Assembly: GCA_965203175.1 (NCBI GenBank)
Contig: OZ241867.1
Span: 3,680,001-3,744,000, forward strand
Length of the DNA stretch: 64,000 nucleotides
Direction: 5' to 3'
DNA from: Candidatus Latescibacterota bacterium
GTDB taxonomy: Bacteria > Latescibacterota > UBA2968 > UBA8231
A program made the position numbers and the translations under genes. The notes under the pieces are model-generated. The model ran no database searches. It was not told the origin of the DNA and worked only from the letters and a program-made list of their open reading frames with translations. Below are positions 1,319-23,429 of this stretch, one piece after another (the stretch's first letter is position 1; every line of letters starts with the position of its first letter).

Positions 1319-2491
1319 ATGACGCATATACAAAACCACGACCTCCGCAAAGATCGAATGACAACCGTTTTTCCCATCACCCAACCGCCTGGATTCCACT
1401 GGTTCAGCTACTACGACAAGTTCCAGTTCGACCCAACGGACCGCTACGCCCTCGGCATGCGCGTAGACTTTGAGCATCGCCTGCCGACCGAGGAAGATGT
1501 GGTTGCCATCGGCATGATTGACCTCGCCGACGGCAACCGGTGGATCGATCTCGGCCAGTCGCGCGCCTGGTGCTGGCAGCAGGGTTGCATGCTCCAGTGG
1601 CGCCCCGGCTCGGATCGCGAGGTAGTGTGGAACGACCGCGACGGAGACGGGTACGTCAGTCGCGTCCTCGATGTAGAGACGCGAAAGATGCGAACTTTGC
1701 CCCGCCCGATCGGCACGCTCAGCCCCGACGGAAAGCTCGCCCTCTGCGAAGACTACAGTCGCATCTGGAACTTCCGCGCCGGCTACGGATATGCGGGAAT
1801 CCCCGACAGGTTCAAAGAGGAGCTCGCCCCAGAGGAGATAGGCGTTTGGCGCATGGATCTCGACACCGGGGATGTTGAGCAACTGATCTCACTCGCCGAG
1901 TTCGTGCGCATCCCGTACCCCGGCCAGACGCCGGAGGACAACCACTACGTCAATCATCTCTCGTGGAACCCCTGCGGCGAGCGGTTCCTCATGTTCAACC
2001 GCTGGGCGGGAGGAGGCCAGCCGACGCGCGTCTTCACCATGGCCGCCGACGGCAGCGATCTGCGACTCCTGTCGGGCCATGGCGCGTCACACTGGACCTG
2101 GTGCGATTCCGATTGCGCTCTCATCTGGGGCGAGGGCGCGTACAAGCTCTACCGCGATGATGGTTCCGGCGAGGCGTGTGAAGTTCTGTGGGAACACGTG
2201 AATGGGCACCAGAGTTATGTGCCTGGGACCGACAACGAGTGGTTGCTGACCGACACGTATCCGGCGAACGACCAGCAGGAACTCTGCCTCTACCACATCC
2301 CGTGCAAAAAGAAGGTCAGCCTTGGGTTCTTCGATGCGCCTTCTGCGTATCGAGGTGAGTGGCGCTGTGATCTTCACCCGCGACTGAGCCGCAGCGGCAC
2401 GAAGGTGGTAATCGATTCGCCGCACCAAGGAAACGGTCGCCAGATGTATCTCATCGAGATCGAGGATGTCTTGGCTCAGGGACGGGCCTGA
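1319..2491 (+). CDS. Oligogalacturonate lyase/TolB-like beta-propeller protein
   Basis: 390-aa ORF with AWCWQQGCMLQW, NHLSWNP, SHWTW, GHQSY, LTDTYP and RCDLHPR motifs. Start may be ATG 1358. Confidence 0.75.
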   Translation: MTHIQNHDLRKDRMTTVFPITQPPGFHWFSYYDKFQFDPTDRYALGMRVDFEHRLPTEEDVVAIGMIDLADGNRWIDLGQSRAWCWQQGCMLQWRPGSDREVVWNDRDGDGYVSRVLDVETRKMRTLPRPIGTLSPDGKLALCEDYSRIWNFRAGYGYAGIPDRFKEELAPEEIGVWRMDLDTGDVEQLISLAEFVRIPYPGQTPEDNHYVNHLSWNPCGERFLMFNRWAGGGQPTRVFTMAADGSDLRLLSGHGASHWTWCDSDCALIWGEGAYKLYRDDGSGEACEVLWEHVNGHQSYVPGTDNEWLLTDTYPANDQQELCLYHIPCKKKVSLGFFDAPSAYRGEWRCDLHPRLSRSGTKVVIDSPHQGNGRQMYLIEIEDVLAQGRA

Positions 2492-2501
2492 GCGCACTGT
2501 C

Positions 2502-3590
2502 TTACTTGGTCAATCCTCGCTTGACTTTCCGCTCAAACTCGCGCATCTCATCCACTCCGTCTAACACGCCGATTTCCATGTTGAACTCGCGCACCTCGCC
2601 CGATTCGATGTACTGCAAGGTCCCGTGCTTGCGGTTCCAAGCGCGACCGAGCACTGAGCAGTTGCCCGGCTCAATGCCGGTGACGTAGGTGCCCTTGTGG
2701 AAGTGCTGCCAGTGGTTGACGATGGGGATCTCGCTGTGCTTGAACTGCCAATACAATCCCAAGCCGAGCTTTTCGTTGAGCAGGCCGATGTGGACGCGCC
2801 CCTGGCGGTCGGTGCGGGGCCGATGCACGTACACATCGTCGTGGGCGCGCGGTTGCGGCCCTTGGGCCACAGTGTAGTCCTCGGGGCTGACGGGGCGGTC
2901 CGCGGTCCACTCGGTGCTCTCGCGGCTGTAGAGGACGAGGCGGGTCCCTTCGTCGAGGAGGGGAAAGCCGGGGTTGCAGTGGTACACGAACATGAGCGGC
3001 GAGCGATCGGCGGCGAGGTTTTCGATGCGGTCGCGGATATGGATGCTGCGCTCGCCGAGTACGGTCGAGATCTCGCGCGACAGTTCTAAATTCTCGGCAA
3101 AGACCTCAGCCTGGCGCATTTGGCCGCGGATGCGCACGACGTAATTGCCGCCCTCCCAGCCTTCCTCAATGCCGACGTTTTTAGCCGGGATGTACGAGAG
3201 GCGACCGTGCAGGGGCATTTCGGCGTTTTCTTCTTCGGGATCGACTTCTGGGTGGCCGACAAAGTCGAGTCCGCAAGAGGTAACCAGCCCGCCGAACCAG
3301 CCGCGTCCCCATTTGAAGCCCTCTGGCTCGTAGAAGGCCGGCCCGACGTCTCCGGGGCCGGAGCGGAAGCACAGCGACTGGCCCTTGTAGTGGGCCGAGG
3401 CAATGTCGAGGGCGCGGCCGGGCAAGACGGAAAACCCCAAGCCCGAAGCGTTGAATACGTCGATGAGATCGGCGCCGCGCTCAAAGCCTTCGCTGCGCTC
3501 GGCGCGGCGGGCGTACATGAGCTGGCTGATGTCACCGACGCGGTTGAGCAGTTGGCGGCGGGTGAAGTTGCGGCCGAAAAGCTTGGGCAT
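2502..3590 (-). CDS. Aldose 1-epimerase family protein (DUF4432-like)
   Basis: GRALDI, GGLVTSCGL, LHGR, YHCNPGFPLL and GIEPGN motifs. AGGAGG RBS precedes ATG 3590. Confidence 0.85.
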   Translation of the reverse strand: MPKLFGRNFTRRQLLNRVGDISQLMYARRAERSEGFERGADLIDVFNASGLGFSVLPGRALDIASAHYKGQSLCFRSGPGDVGPAFYEPEGFKWGRGWFGGLVTSCGLDFVGHPEVDPEEENAEMPLHGRLSYIPAKNVGIEEGWEGGNYVVRIRGQMRQAEVFAENLELSREISTVLGERSIHIRDRIENLAADRSPLMFVYHCNPGFPLLDEGTRLVLYSRESTEWTADRPVSPEDYTVAQGPQPRAHDDVYVHRPRTDRQGRVHIGLLNEKLGLGLYWQFKHSEIPIVNHWQHFHKGTYVTGIEPGNCSVLGRAWNRKHGTLQYIESGEVREFNMEIGVLDGVDEMREFERKVKRGLTK

Positions 3591-14184: not shown

Positions 14185-15348
14185 TTAGCTTCCGGCTTGT
14201 TGCGCGAATTCGCAGATGGTGGTCACGCCGCGGCGGATGTGTTCTTCGGAGGCGGCGATGGAGATGCGCACGTGGTCGCGGCACATCTGGCCGAAGGTGC
14301 TGCCCGGGGCCACGGCCACGCGCTTTTCTTTGAGCAGTCGGATGGCGAATTCGCCGGAGTCCATGCCAGCCGCGGAGATGTCGATCATCAGGTAGATCGC
14401 GCCGCCTGGGGTGTAGCGGTACAAGTTGTATTCTCGCAGGACATCAAGGGCAATGTCGCGGCGGCGCGCATAGGCGCGGCACATGGCGGCTACGTCGTCT
14501 TGCGGGCCATCGAGCGCGTCGGCTGACGCGAGTTGGGAAAATCCCGTGCCACACGAGATAAACGGCTCTTGGAGCTTGGTAGCTAGTTCGATGTACTCGG
14601 GATTGGCACGGGTGAAGCCGACTCGGTAGCCGGTCATGGCATAGCTTTTGGACATGCCGGAGACGATGATGGCGCGTCCGTCCGCATCGTGCGGCAGCGC
14701 GCTCTGATGCGGTTGATCGAAGACGATCTGGCCGTAGATCTCGTCGGACAGCACCCACAAATCATGGCGCTGGGCCAAGTCCATGAGTTGGCGCATCAGG
14801 GCCTCGTCGTACACTTGGCCGGTGGGGTTAGAGGGCGTGCAGAGGAGGAGGAGCTTGGTGCGGGGGCTGACTAGGCGGTCGATTTCGTCGAGGTCGGGCA
14901 GAAAGTGGTTTTTCGCCCGCAGATTGTAAAAGACGGGTTGTCCGTGGACGATGGAGACGGCCATCTCGTAGTTGGGCCAGCCTGGGTCGGGTAACAGGAC
15001 CTCGTCGCCCGGTTCGAGCAGGGCAAGGAAAGTGGTCGCCACGCTCATGACGGCTCCAGGGGTGACGAGGATGTTTTCGCTGGTGGTGGACACGCCGGTG
15101 CGGCGCTCAAAGTAGCGGGCTGCGGCCGCGCGCAACGCATCGACTCCGGCGTTGGGGACGTACTTGGTGTGGCCGGCGCGCGCGTAGCGGCAGGTGGCTT
15201 CGACAATGGACTCTGGGGTGGCAAAATCGGGTTGCCCGACTTCGAGGTGGATGACCTCGCCCGTCTTTTCGACGGCCCAAGCCAAATCCATGATCTCGCG
15301 GATGCCCGAGCGGGGAATAGACGCGGGGATGCGGGCAAAAGGCTTCAT
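14185..15348 (-). CDS. PLP-dependent class I/II aminotransferase (aspartate aminotransferase-like)
   Basis: LEVGQPDF, PSNPTG, SDEIY, SKSYAMTGYRVG (PLP lysine), VAVAPGSTFG, VRIS. ATG overlaps the upstream stop. Confidence 0.92.
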   Translation of the reverse strand: MKPFARIPASIPRSGIREIMDLAWAVEKTGEVIHLEVGQPDFATPESIVEATCRYARAGHTKYVPNAGVDALRAAAARYFERRTGVSTTSENILVTPGAVMSVATTFLALLEPGDEVLLPDPGWPNYEMAVSIVHGQPVFYNLRAKNHFLPDLDEIDRLVSPRTKLLLLCTPSNPTGQVYDEALMRQLMDLAQRHDLWVLSDEIYGQIVFDQPHQSALPHDADGRAIIVSGMSKSYAMTGYRVGFTRANPEYIELATKLQEPFISCGTGFSQLASADALDGPQDDVAAMCRAYARRRDIALDVLREYNLYRYTPGGAIYLMIDISAAGMDSGEFAIRLLKEKRVAVAPGSTFGQMCRDHVRISIAASEEHIRRGVTTICEFAQQAGS

Positions 15349-16142
15349 CGGAGATGAATGCCCGGGCCGGTCGCGCCGATCATCTGCACGGTGTTGTAGA
15401 TGGAGACCGGTGTCGAGGCCCCGGTGACTCCGGTGATTCCCTCGCTGCGCGCAACCTTGAGGTCGAGGCCCGGGCCTTGGGCGTGGATTTCGACGATGGC
15501 TTCGCTCCACTCCGGGCTTACCAGCAGCAGCGAGTGCGTGCGGTCAAAGCCGATGCCGGCGTAGGCGATGGCCGCGTGGGTATTGACGTTGCGCGGGAAG
15601 AGTGGACAGATGCCGCGCGTCGGGCCGTCGTAGAGAACCGTTTCTTCTTTGATGTCGTCGGGATCGAGGCCGGCGGCCGCGCAATCGACGTTGTGCGGGG
15701 GCTTTTTCATCACCACATCGACGGACTCCCACACGTCGCGGTTTTCCAACAGCGCGTCCATGCCGACTACGCCTCCGTGCGGGACGAAGGCGCGGGTGCC
15801 AGCGCGGCGGGTCGTCTCCTCAATGGTGGTTTCGACGGCTCGGTCGGCGAGGGCGGTCACTGAGATGAACATGTAGTTGGTTTTTTCGAGAATCGTCTGG
15901 CCCCATTGGCGGGTGACGTCTGGATGGGCCATCTCGACGACGAGGTCGGGCTGCCGCGATTCAAAGTCGCTCAAGTCCGCTAGGCAGAGGTCGGCGGGGA
16001 GGTTTTGGACGGCCGCGGCCATTTGATCGTGGACGAAGACGACCTCCATGCCGTTGTCTGCGTCAGCGTCTATCATCTTGTGGACGACTTGGCCGATCTG
16101 GCCGTAGCCGATTAGGCCGATGCGGGTCGATTGTTGGCGCAT
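15345..16142 (-). CDS. Aspartate dehydrogenase (NadX/DUF108)-like NAD-dependent oxidoreductase
   Basis: Rossmann GLIGYGQIG, DLVVEMAHP, PHGGVVGMD, KKPP, FPRNVN. C-terminal motifs are divergent. Confidence 0.8.
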   Translation of the reverse strand: MRQQSTRIGLIGYGQIGQVVHKMIDADADNGMEVVFVHDQMAAAVQNLPADLCLADLSDFESRQPDLVVEMAHPDVTRQWGQTILEKTNYMFISVTALADRAVETTIEETTRRAGTRAFVPHGGVVGMDALLENRDVWESVDVVMKKPPHNVDCAAAGLDPDDIKEETVLYDGPTRGICPLFPRNVNTHAAIAYAGIGFDRTHSLLLVSPEWSEAIVEIHAQGPGLDLKVARSEGITGVTGASTPVSIYNTVQMIGATGPGIHLR

Positions 16143-16295
16143 GATTTGGCTCCTCAAAACGGGGTGAAAGCAGAAGTAGCGAATATATGCACTGGCCGGG
16201 GATATGGCGAACAAAGGGCGCGTTTTGGCTGGCAGGAAAGGTACCCGCCGCCATTGTTGAGAAGCGCAGCGTAGCGACGGCGGACAAGCGGCCTC

Positions 16296-17312
16296 TCAAT
16301 CCAGCCAATCGACGACCATCCCGACGATATTCCCATCCCGCTCTCGCTTAATGCGCTCGAACATCGCCGGCATCTCGGCGCACCCTATTCGATGGGTAAT
16401 GCAGTGTTCCCATTTGAGCACTCCCATCGCCATGTTCTTGATTACAGCGCGGCGGCAGGGCTGCCAGCCGTCATCGCAGGGAAAGAACATCTGTAGCCGC
16501 TTGCCGTGTGGCGTAGGAAAGTCCAAGGCGATCGGATCGTCCCCGTAGTGGCCCTGCCAGACGAAAGAGCCAAACCGCCGACAGAGGGCAATCGCCGGAT
16601 CGATGCACTGCGGGTGTCCGGTACACTCGAATACTACATCGGCACCTTCGGGCGCGAGCTCTCCTACTACAGCGGCCACGTCCTGCTTTTTGCCGTTGAT
16701 TGCACAATCCGCTCCCAGCGCCTTGGCGACTGCCAGCGGTTTTTCATCAATGTCCACTGCCACCACCACGCACCCCCGCTGTGCACAAGCTGCCACCACC
16801 CCTAAGCCAATCATCCCCACCCCGTGCACCACCACCGTATCTCCCATCCGCGGATTGGCCATATCGACGCCGTAGAGCCCCACGGCCGGCATCACAAACA
16901 AACTCGCCACATCCATCCCCGCTCCGGGCACCATCTTGGCCACGCCATGCGTGGTATTGGGCCGAGTTACGATGCGGCTGCAATGCCCCCCGGAAACGCA
17001 CCCAACTTCCGTCCCGTCGGCCAGTCGCATCGCGTCATTGCCGCGAAAATACACTTCGTCGCCGACCGCAAAATTGTCGATATCGGCCCCGACAGCTTCT
17101 ATGGTGCCCGTGCCCTGATAGCCGGTGCACAACGGAAAGGGGTTGCGGTTCATTTTGCTGATCTTGCCGCTGATCAGTCCGAACTCGGTGCCGATACTGA
17201 CCCCGGTGAAATGGGTGCGGATCGCGACTTGGTCGGGGGCGGGATCGTTCAGTACGACCTTAGTCAGCGCGAAATTTTGCTGCTCGTCGCAGATGAGCGC
17301 TTTGGCATCCAT
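16296..17312 (-). CDS. Medium-chain (Zn-binding) alcohol/sugar dehydrogenase
   Basis: VSIGTE, PLCTGYQGTG, GDEV, Rossmann VHGVGMIG, DVVFECTG, ITHR. Confidence 0.85.
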   Translation of the reverse strand: MDAKALICDEQQNFALTKVVLNDPAPDQVAIRTHFTGVSIGTEFGLISGKISKMNRNPFPLCTGYQGTGTIEAVGADIDNFAVGDEVYFRGNDAMRLADGTEVGCVSGGHCSRIVTRPNTTHGVAKMVPGAGMDVASLFVMPAVGLYGVDMANPRMGDTVVVHGVGMIGLGVVAACAQRGCVVVAVDIDEKPLAVAKALGADCAINGKKQDVAAVVGELAPEGADVVFECTGHPQCIDPAIALCRRFGSFVWQGHYGDDPIALDFPTPHGKRLQMFFPCDDGWQPCRRAVIKNMAMGVLKWEHCITHRIGCAEMPAMFERIKRERDGNIVGMVVDWLD

Positions 17313-17335: not shown

Positions 17336-19804
17336 TTATTTTCTTTCGGCGATTTTGCAGACCCAGATGCTGATTTCGTAGAGCAGGAGCAGGGGCAGGG
17401 CCATGAGGAGCTGGGAGACTGGGTCGGGCGGCGTGAAGATCGCGCCGAGGACGAAGATGCCGATGATGGCATAGCGGCGGATACGGCGCATCCGCGCGGC
17501 AGTTAGCACCCCGACCTTGGCCAAAAAAAGCGACAGCACGGGCATCTCAAAGACGATGCCAAAACCGGCGATCAGCCGCAGCACAAAGCCGATGTACTCG
17601 TCGGCCGCCCATTGCGAGGTCATGTCGGGCGGTTCTAGCGCGAGGAAAAAGCGCAACCCGAGCGGGAGGACGATGTAATAGGCGATCAGCGCGCCAATCG
17701 AGAAGCAGAGGACGCTCAGCGAGATGATGGGCAGCGTGAGCCGTTTCTCGCGCTGCAAAAGCCCTGGGGCGACAAAGCGCCAGGCTTGGTAGAAGATGAC
17801 CGGCAGCGCCAACAGCAGCCCGCCGACAAAGGCGATTTGCAGGCTGATGAAGAAGTAAGTCATGGGTCGGAGGGCTTGCAGGCGGCGCGCTGGGGGCAGG
17901 TCGGGGATGGGCGCGTCCGGTTCGGGCGCAGCATCGGGTTGGTCCAACCACTGGCTCACTAGTTTTTTGACCGCCAGCACCACGCCCGAGGATTGCTGGC
18001 TCTCCAAGCTGAGGACGGCCTCTTCGTACGGACGGGTCAAGATCTGCATAATCGAGTCGGAGAAGGCGAAGCAAATTACCGCGCCCACGACGAGCGCGGC
18101 TAGGGCCTTGAGAATGCGCCAGCGGAGTTCTTCGAGATGGTCGAGAAAGGGCATGTTGGCTTCTCGGGGTGAGTCTGGGGCGTGGGAGGCTTCTATGTCG
18201 TGATCAACTTCTGGATCATGGTCAGCTTCTATGTCGTGATGAGTTTCCGGTTCGTGGTCGGCAGCCGCTGGCTCGCGGGCGGGTCGCGGTTTGCGGAAAC
18301 GGGCGACAAAAGCGATCAAGACGATCAGCAGGCAGTTCCAGGCGAAGAGGTCGCCGTGCCGAGTGTAAAAGGTCGTGGGTTGGCCGACTGGCACGGTGGC
18401 AACTGCGACTGCGGGCGTGAAGAGATCGGTCGCCTCGTAGGTGCGGCCAAATGGGTCGATAAACAGGGAAATGCCGGTGGTGGCGGAGCGGGCTATGGCT
18501 GTGCGGTTTTCAACGGCGCGCATGGCGTTGATGAGTGCGTGTTGATAGGGGCCCGCGCTGCGGCCAAACCACGAGTCATTGGTGATGTTGACCAACACGC
18601 GCGCCCCAGCCGCCACGTGCTGGCGCACCAGATCGGGAAAGATGGACTCAAAGCAGATGAGCACGGCAAAGGGATGCCGGGGATGGGCAAAAACCGCGTG
18701 CTCTGTGCCGCGCGCGAATTCCGCTGGGCCTAGGTCGCCGGTCAGGCGGGTCCAGTCGATGTCGCGCAGCAGGGGGATGGCGTCGCGGTAGGGCGTCCGC
18801 TCGCCAAAGGGCACCAAGTGCATCTTGGCGTACGAGGGCAGGGTGGTGGCCCCGGGTTGGACGAAGAAGGCCGCGTTGTAGTTCGCGTGCGGCGCGCCGG
18901 TCAGCAAGGGGATGCCCAGCTCCTCGACGAGCGCTTGGATGTGGCCCTGGCAACTGGCCCGGCGCACGGGATCGCACGGCACGGCAGTCTCGGGCCAAAC
19001 CAACAGCTCGGGATTGCGCTTGGCTGCTTGGCGCGAGAGGGTGGCAAGAGCTGAGAAAGTGCGCTCCAGCCCGTTGGGACCCCATTTATCGACGTACGTA
19101 GTGTTCGGTTGGATCAGACCGATGCGCAGGCTCTCGGTCGGGACGGCGGTCGCCATAGCGCTCTGAGCGTGGACCCAAGGCAAGAGATAGCCCAAGGCAA
19201 CGCCCGCGAGAAAGACGCGCCGCTCGACGAGCGCCAAGTACAATAACGCGTTGAGGCCGACGACCCAGCAGGAGACGCCAAAGACGCCGGTCCAGGTGGC
19301 GTACTGGATGAAGTGGGGCAGGGCCGCTTGGCTGTGCCCCAGCAAGAGCCAGGGAAAACCCAACTCCCCGAGCGAGAGCAGATATTCCTGACCGGTCCAC
19401 AACAAAGGCAGCAGTGCGAGTGCCTTCGCGCCCCACCGCGCGGCGAGCACGTTGAACAGCCCGGTACAGAGACCGGTAAAAAGGCCCAAATAAGCGGCCA
19501 TTAGCCCGGTACCTGCGACGACGGCGGGCCCGCCGCCTTGAGTATAGGCCACCCAGTACAGGGATAGCAGATTCCAGACCAAGCCGCTGATCCAGCCCGC
19601 GGCAAAGCCGGCTTTGAAGCCGCGGCCTTTTAGCGCGAGCAGCAAAGGCACCAGCGCACAATGGGCCCAGAGCGGATGAAAGAGAAAGGCGAGGGGGTGA
19701 TCGGGGTGGCTGGGAAAGGCCAGCGAGAGCAAGGCCCCGCTCAGTGCGGCCAGCAGCAGGCGGTAAAGCGGGGTTAGGACCAGAACAAAGCGCGGGTTAG
19801 ACAT
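17336..19804 (-). CDS. lnt-tatC: Apolipoprotein N-acyltransferase (Lnt) fused in frame to twin-arginine translocase subunit TatC
   Basis: Residues 1-~505 are Lnt (GFPW..LGHSQ, WPETA, KMHLVPFGE, ICFESIFP, NITNDSWFG, MRAVENR, TFYTRHGD). From Met551 the sequence is TatC (MPFLDHLEELRWR, WRFVAPGLLQREK, FEMP, TPPDPVSQ, LLYEIS). No stop between them. Confidence 0.9.
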   Translation of the reverse strand: MSNPRFVLVLTPLYRLLLAALSGALLSLAFPSHPDHPLAFLFHPLWAHCALVPLLLALKGRGFKAGFAAGWISGLVWNLLSLYWVAYTQGGGPAVVAGTGLMAAYLGLFTGLCTGLFNVLAARWGAKALALLPLLWTGQEYLLSLGELGFPWLLLGHSQAALPHFIQYATWTGVFGVSCWVVGLNALLYLALVERRVFLAGVALGYLLPWVHAQSAMATAVPTESLRIGLIQPNTTYVDKWGPNGLERTFSALATLSRQAAKRNPELLVWPETAVPCDPVRRASCQGHIQALVEELGIPLLTGAPHANYNAAFFVQPGATTLPSYAKMHLVPFGERTPYRDAIPLLRDIDWTRLTGDLGPAEFARGTEHAVFAHPRHPFAVLICFESIFPDLVRQHVAAGARVLVNITNDSWFGRSAGPYQHALINAMRAVENRTAIARSATTGISLFIDPFGRTYEATDLFTPAVAVATVPVGQPTTFYTRHGDLFAWNCLLIVLIAFVARFRKPRPAREPAAADHEPETHHDIEADHDPEVDHDIEASHAPDSPREANMPFLDHLEELRWRILKALAALVVGAVICFAFSDSIMQILTRPYEEAVLSLESQQSSGVVLAVKKLVSQWLDQPDAAPEPDAPIPDLPPARRLQALRPMTYFFISLQIAFVGGLLLALPVIFYQAWRFVAPGLLQREKRLTLPIISLSVLCFSIGALIAYYIVLPLGLRFFLALEPPDMTSQWAADEYIGFVLRLIAGFGIVFEMPVLSLFLAKVGVLTAARMRRIRRYAIIGIFVLGAIFTPPDPVSQLLMALPLLLLYEISIWVCKIAERK
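18189..18260. repeat. Two 36-bp tandem repeats in the Lnt-TatC linker
   Basis: GCTTCTATGTCGTGAT starts at both 18189 and 18225; encodes DHEPETHHDIEA and DHDPEVDHDIEA. Confidence 0.8.
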
Positions 19805-19976
19805 CGGCAGTGGGGGGTAATGCGCAAAAATATAGGAGGGGGATCGGGGCGGAGCAAGGTGCTGGCACAGATTGTGCTTATACGTCGGTTGCGTCTAGTA
19901 CCCACAGACTCGTGGGAGCTGGGCGCTACATTCGCGTGGTTTTTTTGCTACAGCTTTGCTCAAGGAGGAACGCGCC

Positions 19977-20696
19977 GTGCCAACGCAAACTCAGCCCATT
20001 GACTACGACTTTGCCGCCCGCACTGTGGGCGAGGGGCCGCCCGTCCATCGCGGCGAACTGCCACGAGAGCGGCTCGCGCGCCTGGGGCCGCAGGCGCTCA
20101 AAGACCAAGAGCTGTTGGCCGTGGCCTTGGGGACGGGGTATCGCGGCCGACACGTGATGGACTTGGCCGAGAGCATCCTCGCTGATTATCCAAAGGAATC
20201 GCTGGTGGACATGGACTTAGGGCAATTGAGCCGGATTAAGGGACTGGGCAAGGCCAAGGCCGGGGTCTTGGTCGCGGCGTTTGAACTGGCGCGCCGCGGG
20301 TTGCACAAGGGCTTGGGGGTGCGGCCGGTGATTAGTGCGCCCGGCGACGCGCTGTCCATGCTGTCCGACATCAAGGATCAGCAGCGCGAGCACTTTCTCT
20401 GCTTGTATCTCAACGCCCGCAATCAGGTGATCCACAAGGAGGTCGTGTCCATCGGCAGTCTATCTTCGGCCATCGTGCATCCGCGCGAGGTCTTTCGCAC
20501 GGCTGTAGCGCAGGCTGCGGCCAGCGTGATCTTGGCGCACAACCATCCCTCCGGCGACGTGTCGCCCAGCCAAGACGACATCAACTTGACGCGGCGCTTG
20601 GTGCAGGCCGGCGAAATTATGGGCATTGACGTACTCGACCATCTCATCATCGGCAGCGATGATTTTATCAGCTTGAAGGAGCGCGGATTGATATGA
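19977..20696 (+). CDS. radC: RadC/UPF0758 JAB-domain protein
   Basis: PRERL, ELLA, GLGKAKA, VHPREVF, AHNHPSGD...SQDD, DVLDHLII. AAGGAGG RBS before GTG. Confidence 0.93.
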   Translation: MPTQTQPIDYDFAARTVGEGPPVHRGELPRERLARLGPQALKDQELLAVALGTGYRGRHVMDLAESILADYPKESLVDMDLGQLSRIKGLGKAKAGVLVAAFELARRGLHKGLGVRPVISAPGDALSMLSDIKDQQREHFLCLYLNARNQVIHKEVVSIGSLSSAIVHPREVFRTAVAQAAASVILAHNHPSGDVSPSQDDINLTRRLVQAGEIMGIDVLDHLIIGSDDFISLKERGLI

Positions 20697-20773
20697 AGAA
20701 AGAAAATTGTATTTGCCCGGCAAAAGCCTATATTACTGACAAACGCAGCAATTTATACAAGGGTACGCGAGCG

Positions 20774-21472
20774 ATGAAAGACGAAGAAAGTCATCTAATT
20801 CCAGTGTACATTTTCGACATGTACCCCTATCCAGACTCGGAACAGGGTTTGGGCATGCCGCAGAAGTTCTTGGTTTTGCTCAAGGGCACGGAAAACAGCG
20901 TGGTGCCCATCACGATCGGCCACTTCGAGGGCCAAGCCCTCGCCATGGCCCTGCGCAAAATCGCCTTGCCGCGACCCCTGCCGCACGATCTGTTGTGCAA
21001 CCTGCTCAAGCGAATCGACGCCGTGGTCCACAAGCTGGTGGTCCACACCCTCAAAGAGGATGTTTTCCACGCGTACCTGCTGGTCCAAGCCCAAGGCCAG
21101 TCCTTTTACCTCGACTGCCGCCCGAGCGACGGTATGATCGTGGCCACGCTCTTGGGCGTGCCGCTCTTTTTGACCCCAGAGGTCATGGAGGCGGCTGGCC
21201 AACCGCTGGAGCACTCCGACGAGCGCGAAGGGGCTAGCAGCGAACAAGCTGCTGCGCCCGAGGTGGTCCAGGATGCGCCCGCAGAGGACAAAGCGGCTGA
21301 GTGCGAAAGTGCCGCGAATAAGCCGGAGGCGTTCGTGGATCCGCAGACGGGCGAGCCGATAAGCCAGTTGGAACAGCTCAAGGCGCACTTGGACTGGCTC
21401 ATCGCCTGCGAGGCCTACGAGCAGGCAGCCAAGGTCCGCGACCGCATCAGCGAGCTAGAGTCCGACAGCTGA
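20774..21472 (+). CDS. Bifunctional nuclease (DUF151) with C-terminal UVR domain
   Basis: PITIGHFEGQA, PRPLPHDL, DCRPSDG; C-terminal AYEQAAKVRDRI (UvrB/C motif). Confidence 0.85.
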   Translation: MKDEESHLIPVYIFDMYPYPDSEQGLGMPQKFLVLLKGTENSVVPITIGHFEGQALAMALRKIALPRPLPHDLLCNLLKRIDAVVHKLVVHTLKEDVFHAYLLVQAQGQSFYLDCRPSDGMIVATLLGVPLFLTPEVMEAAGQPLEHSDEREGASSEQAAAPEVVQDAPAEDKAAECESAANKPEAFVDPQTGEPISQLEQLKAHLDWLIACEAYEQAAKVRDRISELESDS

Positions 21473-21498
21473 GGTCATTCTCGCTGCGCCGCGCTTAG

Positions 21499-21538
21499 AC
21501 GCTCTTGTACGGCTGTTGTCGTGCAGGGGCGTTTTTTT
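21499..21538 (+). terminator. Intrinsic terminator after radC-DUF151
   Basis: Stem ACGCTCTTGTACGGC / GTCGTGCAGGGGCGT (several G-U pairs, so plus-strand specific) followed by a T run. Confidence 0.7.
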
Positions 21539-21545
21539 GTGCGCG

Positions 21546-23429
21546 CTAGGTGGCGGATCGAGTGCGGGCGTGCAAGAAGACCATGAGCGAAGCGAGGTCC
21601 GCGGGCGAGACTCCGGAAATGCGCGAAGCCTGTCCTAGGGTCTGCGGGCGGATGGTCTCGAGCTTTTGGCGCGCCTCAGTTGAAATGTTCAGTCCGGGAG
21701 CGGCGAAGTCAAAATCGGTCGGCAGGCGCAGGGATTCGAGGCGCTTGAGCTTTTGCGCTTGGGTTTCTTGGCGCTTGATGTACCCCGCGTATTTGATCTC
21801 GGCCTCGACGTGTTCGGCCGCGTCTGGGGACAGGGGCTGTGGAGGCGGGGCGAATTCGCAGAGGTGGTCGTAGTTGAGTTGGGGGCGGCGCAGCAACTCG
21901 GCGAGCGAGGTCGATTCGGCAATGGGAGCAGTGCCCTGCCGCGTCAAGACCTCTTGCACTTTTTCAGTCGGTTTGACGCGCTCGTGTTGTAGGCGTTCGC
22001 GCTCGGCACCCACCTGTTGCTGCTTGGTTTGAAACTGGTGCCACAGGTCGTCGCCGATCAATCCCAGGGCCCGGCCCTTGGCCATCAAACGGTCGTCGGC
22101 GTTGTCCTCGCGCAAGAGCAGGCGGTGCTCGGCGCGCGAGGTGAAGATGCGGTACGGCTCTAGCGTGCCTTTGGTCACGAGGTCGTCGATTAGCACGCCG
22201 ATGTAGGCGTCGGCGCGCGTGAGCACGAGCGGGTCGTCGCCGCGCGCCTTGAGTACGGCGTTGATACCGGCCATAATCCCTTGGGCCGCGGCTTCTTCAT
22301 AGCCAGTGGTGCCGTTGATCTGGCCGGCGAAGAAGAGATTGGCCACGCGCTTGGTCTCTAAGTGGGGGTAGAGTTGGGTCGGCGGGGCGTAATCGTATTC
22401 GACTGCGTACGCCGGGCGCAGGATCTCGGCTCGTTCGAGGCCGGGCAGGGAGCGCACGATCTGGGGCTGCAGGGTCTCCGGCAGGCTCATCGACAGGCCG
22501 TTGAGATAAAATTCGAGAGTGCGCCGCCCCTCTGGCTCGACGAAAACTTGGTGTCGTTCCTTGTCGGCAAAGCGCGCGATTTTGTCCTCTATGGAGGGAC
22601 AGTAGCGCGGGCCGATGCCCTCGATGCGCCCACTGTACATGGCCGAGTGCGCTAGGTTGTCTTGGACGAGCTCGTGGGTGTGGGCGTTGGTGTAGGTGAT
22701 CCAGCAGGGCATTTGCGGCTGGATGATCTTTTGCACCGCATAGGAAAAGGGGCGCGGCGGGTCGTCGCCGGGCTGTTCTTCGAACGCGGCAAAGTCGAGG
22801 GTGCGGCCATTGACGCGCGGTGGGGTGCCAGTCTTGAGCCGGCCGGTTTCAAAGCCGAGCGCGACCAAGCCCTCGGCGGCCTTTTCAGCGGCAGTCTCGC
22901 CGGCGCGGCCTGCGCTATAGGAGAAATCGCCGACGTGAATTTTGCCGCGCAGGAAGGTGCCGGTCGTGAGGATGACGGTGCGGCTGCGGTAGGCGATGCC
23001 GCCCTTGACGCCGATGCCTTGGACGGTTCCGTCCTCGATTAGCAAGCTCTCCATCAGGCCCTGGCGGATGTCGAGATGTTCTTGCTGTTCGCAGGTGTAC
23101 TTCAGTTCGAATTGGTAGTCCTTTTTGTCGGCTTGGGCTCGCGAGGCGCGCACGGCTGGGCCGCGCGAGGTGTTGAGGCGGCGGAATTGGATGCCGGTGC
23201 GGTCGATGTTGACGGCCATCTGGCCGCCGAGCGCGTCGATTTCCTTGACGATGTGCCCCTTGCCGATCCCGCCGATAGCCGGGTTGCAGGATAGCTGGCC
23301 AATGGTATCCAAGTTCATGGTCAGGAGCAGGGTCTCGGCTCCCATGCGCGCCGCGGCGAGCGCGGCCTCGGTGCCGGCGTGGCCGCCGCCGACGACGATG
23401 ACTTGGTACGCTTTGTCGTAGAAAATCAC
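21546..23429 (-). CDS. mnmG: tRNA uridine-5-carboxymethylaminomethyl(34) synthesis enzyme MnmG (GidA)
   Basis: [67 protein letters not shown]. Confidence 0.97.

Follow-up and report, generated by a model that had tools for sequence, protein, structure and literature searches.

An in-frame lnt-tatC gene fusion in a Latescibacterota genome and its relatives

The closest precedent for the gene described here is Ppm1 (Rv2051c) of Mycobacterium tuberculosis, in which an N-terminal apolipoprotein N-acyltransferase (Lnt) domain is fused to a polyprenol-monophosphomannose synthase; in Mycobacterium smegmatis and Corynebacterium glutamicum, the Lnt and the synthase are encoded by separate, immediately adjacent open reading frames (ORFs) (PMC3460810). 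Our subject is a single ORF of 822 codons in which lnt continues in frame into tatC, the gene for the core of the twin-arginine translocation (Tat) system. It lies in a stretch of 64,000 nucleotides from Candidatus Latescibacterota bacterium (assembly GCA_965203175.1, contig OZ241867.1, positions 3,680,001 to 3,744,000), which was analysed as a whole and is called the window below; positions are those of the window unless a contig is named. Ppm1 and Lnt-TatC share the same evolutionary pattern, fused in some lineages and encoded by adjacent genes in others, but the partner is another one: Ppm1 is actinobacterial and carries a cytoplasmic glycosyltransferase domain instead of a six-helix translocase core. 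Moreover, the functional link between the halves was examined experimentally in that case, whereas Lnt-TatC is known here from sequence alone.

Each half can be compared with its canonical counterpart. Like Lnt of Escherichia coli and Pseudomonas aeruginosa (PDB 5n6h, 5vrg, 5xhq, 6nwr and 5n6m), the fused protein has the catalytic triad, the auxiliary W/E residues and the LNT_N and CN_hydrolase domains, but the fusion adds 317 C-terminal residues that make up the linker and TatC. Like TatC of Aquifex aeolicus (4b4a/4hts) and E. coli (in 9dzz/9r91), it matches the Pfam and TIGRFAM profiles at full length and has six transmembrane (TM) helices and the HLxELR motif; it differs in that TatC is preceded by an acidic extension and a whole Lnt, in a loop insertion of ~43 residues and in having only TatA as a detectable partner. 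Engineered E. coli TatB-TatC fusions, in which a cytoplasmic linker leads to the N terminus of TatC, are reportedly functional, and by analogy they make it plausible that TatC works with a partner fused to its N terminus. These constructs are artificial, however, and what they join to TatC is a single-helix Tat component, not an unrelated eight-helix enzyme. A description of an Lnt-TatC fusion was not found in the titles and abstract openings of the openly accessible literature, which agrees with an earlier interpretation of the window from its letters (the sequence-only reading) that had known no such fusion from characterised systems. Lnt-TatC appears to be a widespread yet unreported variant of two known families.

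The explanation that we favour, with a probability of roughly 70%, is that the gene encodes a bifunctional inner-membrane polypeptide of 14 helices in which each half does its usual job, and that it arose from a coupled gene pair that was fused repeatedly. Residues 1-505 would be a catalytically competent apolipoprotein N-acyltransferase, residues 506-550 a flexible, acidic cytoplasmic tether and residues 551-822 a six-helix TatC, which together with the single TatA of the cell would make a minimal TatA/TatC translocase. Loss of the lnt stop codon, about four independent times, would have turned an extension of TatC into the interdomain linker. The fusion is probably tolerated because the C terminus of Lnt and the N terminus of TatC are both cytoplasmic. 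The full-length polypeptide would be the main product, and the effect of the fusion would be obligatory 1:1 coexpression and colocalisation only, with no new mechanism.

Anatomy and integrity of the fused reading frame

The fusion ORF occupies positions 17336..19804 on the minus strand, starts with ATG and ends with a TAA stop at 17336-17338. Its Lnt moiety (residues 1-505; 18290..19804, minus strand) comprises eight TM helices and a periplasmic nitrilase-like domain, as seen from the match to TIGR00546, structure alignment and an AlphaFold2 model in which the predicted local distance difference test score (pLDDT) is mostly >90. The match to the lnt equivalog TIGR00546 reached 316.9 bits over profile positions 2-395, compared with the curated NCBIfam cut-off of 132.9 bits. 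The membrane domain LNT_N (PF20154; E value, 1.2e-27) covers residues 22-187 (19244..19741, minus strand), and the CN_hydrolase domain (PF00795; E value, 2.9e-28) covers residues 229-473 (18386..19120, minus strand). Residues 13-510 aligned end to end with solved structures of E. coli Lnt, and the motifs WPE (E272), AKMHLVPFGE (K327 and E335) and ICFE (C384) match the WPE, K-x-HLVPFGE and IC[YF]E motifs of E. coli Lnt in PDB 5vrg. The triad of the E. coli enzyme is E267/K335/C387. The catalytic codons were checked on the DNA and lie, on the minus strand, at 18989-18991 (E272), 18824-18826 (K327) and 18653-18655 (C384). In one alignment (A1), all fused (29/29) and all Lnt-only (14/14) rows have E272, K327, E335 and C384, and the ratio of nonsynonymous to synonymous substitution rates (dN/dS) of the fused Lnt had a median of 0.11 against 12 congeners. 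Because the catalytic residues are invariant and the median dN/dS is low, the fused Lnt is, judged by its conservation, not decaying despite the presence of a paralogue.

The last helix of the Lnt moiety, TM8 (residues 485-503; 18296..18352, minus strand), brings the chain back to the cytoplasm; it has a hydropathy peak of 1.92, is modelled as a helix at residues 486-502 and matches the last helix of E. coli Lnt in the alignment. After TM8 comes the sequence RFRKPRP and then the acidic, His/Pro-rich cytoplasmic linker (residues 506-550; 18155..18289, minus strand), which was assigned from its composition, its pLDDT and the split relatives described below. Its 45 residues include 14 D/E, 3 K/R, 6 His and 7 Pro, and residues 516-549 were modelled as coil with a pLDDT of <50. 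A tandem repeat at 18189..18259 (a 36-nucleotide unit in 2.0 copies or an 18-nucleotide unit in 2.8 copies) encodes hexapeptide units of the DHDPEx type that are rich in DH and D/E. Its copy number varies among species and is the source of length steps of 6 residues, so that the proteins of relatives have 810, 816, 822, 828 or 834 residues. Among the fetched fused ORFs, the linker was 16 to 57 residues long inside the genus and up to 85 residues long elsewhere. That the His/Asp/Glu-rich repeat might bind metal is pure speculation.

The TatC moiety (residues 551-822; 17339..18154, minus strand) matches PF00902 with residues 555-804 over the full profile (1-208; 241.5 bits; E value, 1e-71) and the tatC equivalog TIGR00945 with 216.8 bits, compared with a cut-off of 132.7 bits. 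Residues 551-594 and 638-822 aligned with Aquifex TatC (4b4a/4hts) from Met1 to the end (1-233), with Met551 on Met1 of 4b4a. The ATG of Met551 (18152..18154, minus strand) encodes the first residue of the invariant motif MPFLDHLEELRW and is a possible, unproven internal start. Six hydropathy peaks are present, which are helices in the AlphaFold2 model; by analogy with solved homologues, from which the sidedness was taken, both termini of TatC should be cytoplasmic. The residues between the two aligned segments form an insertion of ~43 residues in the first periplasmic loop, relative to Aquifex TatC (residues 595-637; 17894..18022, minus strand), which was modelled with one short helix at a pLDDT of 53 to 72. 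M551, H556, E558, E559 and R561 are shared by all fused (29/29) and all TatC-only (17/17) rows of alignment A1; the Glu of the HLxELR motif is the equivalent of E15 of E. coli TatC. The median dN/dS of the TatC moiety was 0.12 against the 12 congeners, and judged by these ratios both halves are under purifying selection. The TatC match spans 750 nucleotides in the window's genus, ~740 to 840 nucleotides elsewhere in its family and 633 to 669 nucleotides in two other families (f3 and f4, see below).

The AlphaFold2 model of the whole fusion, computed from an alignment of 60 rows, has two confident domains, a mean pLDDT of 85.7 and a predicted template modelling score of 0.65. A complex prediction for Lnt residues 1-512 against TatC residues 551-822 (alignment A1) gave no answer (score, 0.00; mark, 0.32) and speaks neither for nor against binding. 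All elements of the anatomy proposed in the sequence-only reading are present in the ORF. The single 822-residue in-frame Lnt-TatC ORF is borne out by the ORF itself and by the Pfam and NCBIfam matches, the three motifs said to hold an intact E-K-C triad were all found and aligned to 5vrg, the acidic linker of ~45 residues was recovered at 45 residues with its excess of D/E over K/R, and the complete TatC said to begin at Met551 agrees with the full-profile Pfam match, the alignment to Met1 of Aquifex TatC and the ATG at 18152-18154. The compatible topology that it had proposed is likewise supported, as predicted from TM8, the RFRKPRP sequence and a disordered cytoplasmic linker that leads to the N terminus of TatC.

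The source genome is a single 6.58-Mb contig, and the frame was found again in contigs of two runs. A DNA contig of 12.5 kb from run X2, possibly from the source sample, spans the whole gene with 4 substitutions and 0 indels, and a contig of run X3, which belongs to a different study, crosses the junction at 18148-18581 without a gap. The segment at 18150-18310, on which the earlier proposal of a fusion depends, is crossed by both. In addition, a first protein search returned, among the 120 rows listed, ~50 proteins of full length at 87 to 96% identity, each with the three Pfam domains, and a second group of 12 proteins at 51 to 54% identity. The runs that best hold 17336-19804 (21 rows from 13 studies) carry sponge or marine metagenome labels or coded organism names, and five metatranscriptome runs hold small shares of this segment.

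Distribution and repeated origin

TatC family matches were sought in 168 genomes across the phylum, and the open frame that surrounds each of them was determined; 150 of the 166 matches were listed, and a match was called fused if its frame had 713 residues or more. A Lnt-sized frame around TatC was present in 84 of the 126 listed rows of the window's class and in 0/24 of the other classes. A search of related genomes for the CN_hydrolase plus TatC architecture had been proposed in the sequence-only reading. Within the window's genus (g1), 24/29 listed rows had a long TatC frame, and with genome G127, which is cut by a contig end yet has both domains in one frame, 25/29 are fused; in the remaining four, lnt and tatC are adjacent with an in-frame stop codon between them. 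The numbers were 7/41 for the other genera of the window's family (f1), 0/3 for family f2, 21/22 for family f3 and 31/31 for family f4. The exception in f3 (G060) has a frame of 506 residues with fragmentary Lnt matches and is probably cut. Forty-four ORFs were fetched and each was inspected directly; both domains were in a single frame in all of them. In the other classes, TatC was also seen in long frames that do not contain Lnt: 406 to 464 residues in family f10 (G012, G014, G015, G021 and G022), 653 residues in G002 and 553 residues in G025.

An exhaustive search of 1.84 billion representatives gave both domains in only 2 of the best 150 rows, and therefore the architecture is lineage restricted; a fusion from another lineage should have ranked near the top. 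TatC-bearing proteins of >476 residues numbered 757 at an E value of <=1e-10, and the best 120 comprised 118 Lnt-TatC and 2 NadA-TatC proteins. The source taxa of the database fusions were Gemmatimonadetes, Gemmatimonadota or Gemmatimonadaceae in 8 rows, "Candidatus Latescibacteria" in 3 and "bacterium" in 2. The product names are "apolipoprotein N-acyltransferase" or "hypothetical protein," and TatC is named once, in a partial record; with such labels, tatC would be scored as absent from these genomes in automated surveys. Both families are occasionally multidomain in other ways, although these fusions are rare and have other partners: NadA (PF02445)-TatC (P0450 and P0451), and Lnt-CbiQ, Lnt-SNase, Lnt-LEA_2 and Lnt joined to alpha/beta-hydrolase or thioesterase domains (P0237, P0249, P0209, P0299, P0322 and others).

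In split relatives, lnt is located directly upstream of tatC; in the other classes that were checked, the two genes are unlinked. The tatC frame of 15/18 analysable split loci has an ATG between -20 and +9 nucleotides, counted from where the lnt stop codon ends, and six of these loci have ATGA overlaps. Within g1, the split relatives that are sister to the window's clade have a stop codon, one further codon and an ATG, all in the lnt frame. These arrangements indicate that the lnt-tatC pair is translationally coupled across the class, and the two genes can be fused simply by losing the lnt stop codon or through a small indel. From the coupled ATG to the MPFLDHLEELRW motif, the split forms have 16 to 42 residues with a net charge of +1 to -11, which is negative in 14/15. 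Because split relatives carry this acidic extension at the same place, the linker of the fused forms is the former N-terminal extension of TatC. An acidic stretch also precedes TatC where it is unlinked, namely in f2, in genus g2 and in one other class.

Trees of Lnt (86 rows) and TatC (65 rows) were rooted with the other classes as the outgroup. On the Lnt tree, the fused state needs 4 changes, at least 3 of which are forced by well-supported branches; on the TatC tree it also needs 4 changes, all 4 of which are forced. Therefore, the coupled pair was fused repeatedly, and four gains are the most parsimonious reading with this outgroup. Both trees contain the same four fused clades (f3 plus f4, genus g17, part of genus g18 and the crown of g1), which are nested among split forms, and split members were not seen inside any of the four on either tree.

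Copy numbers and genomic surroundings

The fused copy is the only TatC in the genome, and among the matches listed almost every genome of the phylum has one TatC. The TatA_B_E family gave a single match in the 6.58 Mb, a TatA of 102 residues located ~1.8 Mb from the fusion, and the family search detected no second TatA/B-family gene in the genome. Adjacent tatA or tatB genes are indeed lacking, as had been noted from the window. The five complete genomes with a fusion (5/5) have one TatA-family gene each, none of which is immediately adjacent to the fusion.

The cut-off was passed by two Lnt genes, namely the fusion and a standalone copy (1327..2838 of locus L003, at ~4.6238-4.6253 Mb of contig C1, plus strand) that encodes 503 residues, matches TIGR00546 with 345 bits and has an intact triad. 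A look for further lnt and tatC copies, which the sequence-only reading had proposed, thus returned no second TatC and one Lnt paralogue. The standalone gene sits behind a CorC/CBS-like ORF (L003 is C1:4622475-4626659). On the Lnt tree, the standalone copies form one long-stemmed clade that is confined to f1 and f2. The nearest named relatives of the copy in this genome carry Latescibacteria or Gemmatimonadaceae labels at ~50% identity; this copy may stem from horizontal transfer or from an old duplication. In comparisons with E. coli Lnt, the standalone copy reached 183 bits and the fused copy 127 bits. The tatC-linked Lnt is nearer to the single Lnt of other classes (261 to 365 bits) than to the standalone copy (162 to 237 bits). 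Family f1 mostly has two Lnts. Exactly one Lnt, located in the TatC frame, is present in 21/22 rows of f3 and 31/31 rows of f4; in these families one polypeptide is the only Lnt and the only TatC. Genus g2 (G093 and G094; L060 and L089) has only the standalone type of Lnt together with an unlinked TatC that carries an acidic extension, and its tatC-linked lnt appears to have been lost.

The genes lgt and lspA are present in the genome, and both are distant from the fusion. Two lgt-like genes were found, at C1:4250471-4251208 (151 bits, above the cut-off) and at 2277543-2278274 of the same contig (99 bits, below it). The neighbours of the fusion in the window (14185-17312 and 19956-23429) are ordinary genes with no link to the cell envelope. 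Downstream on the same strand are genes for a zinc-type alcohol dehydrogenase, 24 nucleotides past the stop codon, an aspartate-dehydrogenase-like protein and a class I/II aminotransferase. On the upstream side, divergently oriented RadC-like and bifunctional-nuclease/UVR genes are followed by MnmG.

One bifunctional protein, two products or a coupled machine

Several points weigh against two independent halves in one polypeptide. We infer the existence and the predominance of the full-length product from the sequence, and we read the change as a gain and not a loss on the grounds of an outgroup root and parsimony. Retention of Met551 is compatible with an internal start that gives free TatC, and Shine-Dalgarno strength does not discriminate starts in this genome. 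Four fusions with no split member inside the clades could mean selection for coupling; repeated fusion without visible reversal therefore leaves room for selection. Finally, some near-identical records are broken: P0053-P0056 and P0066 stop within the linker or close to it, or pass into another frame of the linker repeat, and P0049, P0050 and P0052 have the TatC part in another frame. These records may be assembly errors or real broken alleles, and the repeat is an obvious site for assembly breaks.

The alternative that survives best, although we consider it unlikely, is that two products are made: free TatC would be translated from Met551, in addition to or instead of the fusion, or would be released by cleavage of the linker, and would act as an ordinary TatC in the translocase. 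Of the fetched fused ORFs, 43/44 retain the core Met although the linker before it is hypervariable, as do 60/60 motif-bearing proteins from the databases, and this Met coincides with the first residue of Aquifex TatC. The codons before it are often rich in purines, and genus g18 has GGGGGAG directly upstream, with an anti-Shine-Dalgarno duplex of -7 to -11.5 kcal/mol. Moreover, real starts in the genome often have no Shine-Dalgarno sequence; only 32% of the first ATGs reach -6 kcal/mol, and the start of the fusion ORF itself has +1.9 kcal/mol. However, it is the whole 12-residue motif that is invariant and not Met alone, and the Met is equally kept in split relatives, where the coupled upstream ATG is the likelier start; therefore, its conservation need not reflect initiation. 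The duplex before Met551 has -3.0 kcal/mol, which is at the background level of the genome's internal ATGs (mean, -2.6 kcal/mol, compared with -4.3 kcal/mol for first ATGs) and agrees with the weak ribosome-binding site that had been read from the window. The range before the core Met was +0.4 to -10.8 kcal/mol in split relatives and +0.3 to -11.5 kcal/mol in fused forms. In addition, the sole fused ORF of the 44 without the Met, that of G156 (L042), has ATA (Ile) as the codon before PFLDHLEELRW, although an in-frame ATG is present 15 codons upstream; this genome is an assembly of 150 contigs with one TatC, and the close relative P0061 has Met. A contig from an RNA library (X17), derived from a relative of ~92% identity, covers 17352-18288, that is, tatC and the linker, and ends there at a depth of 5, and cover in run X18 is absent from ~17917 to 18414. 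Since X17 and X18 are stored contigs and RNA libraries may contain DNA, neither a start, an end nor a level of a transcript can be read from them.

Somewhat less probable still is a coupled machine, the idea put forward in the sequence-only reading, in which an Lnt tethered at the exit of the translocon would N-acylate folded Tat lipoproteins efficiently. In the window's family, the fused Lnt would then serve Tat substrates and the standalone Lnt Sec substrates. A functional link is classically suggested by fused genes and by neighbours that stay adjacent, and lnt is directly upstream of tatC throughout the class. Four independent fusions without a reversal in the fused clades point in the same direction, the two Lnt paralogues of f1 would permit a division of labour, and the Lnt-polyprenol-monophosphomannose synthase fusion of M. 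tuberculosis is a precedent for joining functionally related steps (PMC3460810). A few plausible precursors that combine a twin-arginine signal with a lipobox do exist, for example, SRRNFLK...LSSC and SRRSFLQ...LAAC. In a census with home-made regular expressions on stop-to-stop frames, which gives orders of magnitude only, ~80 Tat-like N termini were counted, but only 6 of them had a lipobox (3 to 4 convincing), compared with ~290 lipobox-like frames. The count of twin-arginine lipoproteins, which had been offered as a check on the machine, is thus low.

The steps that follow export and precede Lnt are those of Lgt and LspA, whose genes are elsewhere; therefore, tethering of Lnt without them cannot channel substrates. 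Families f3 and f4 have no Lnt other than the fused one, which must therefore serve all lipoproteins, those of the Sec route included. The linker is hypervariable in length (16 to 85 residues) as well as in sequence and is predicted to be disordered, which suits a passive tether. Many close relatives keep lnt and tatC split, and the genome contains a second Lnt that the proposal of an export-and-acylation machine had not foreseen. Taken with the few candidate precursors and the distant lgt and lspA, these observations do not support that proposal.

We regard as doubtful the stronger version, in which Lnt and the Tat receptor would be a working unit in Gemmatimonadetes and the tethered Lnt would mature folded Tat lipoproteins at the translocon itself. 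In the family with two Lnt paralogues, the fused copy would be specialised for Tat and the standalone copy for Sec substrates, the acidic tether, which adjoins the twin-arginine binding site of TatC, would take part in substrate handling, and the repeated fusions would reflect selection for this coupling. An artefact or a pseudogene, that is, a stop codon lost or a frame shifted through assembly error or a decaying gene, is effectively refuted, the truncated and frameshifted near-identical records around the linker repeat notwithstanding, by a frame that is intact in 84/126 listed TatC rows of the class, many of them from single-contig genomes, and in contigs of two runs from different studies, by a dN/dS of ~0.1 in both halves and by the fact that the fusion holds the only TatC of the genome.

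A bifunctional polypeptide with halves that would each work as usual remains the explanation that we prefer. TatC works in tight oligomers, and its N-terminal region belongs to the site that binds twin-arginine signals. For this reason, cells whose only TatC is permanently joined to an enzyme of eight helices are in effect a natural test of the tolerance of the Tat receptor complex. If the halves act independently, the gene is a neat case of translationally coupled neighbours that slid repeatedly into fusion. At the same time, the fusion is a "Rosetta-stone" hint that links Tat export with lipoprotein maturation, and this link is testable in cultured Gemmatimonadetes.

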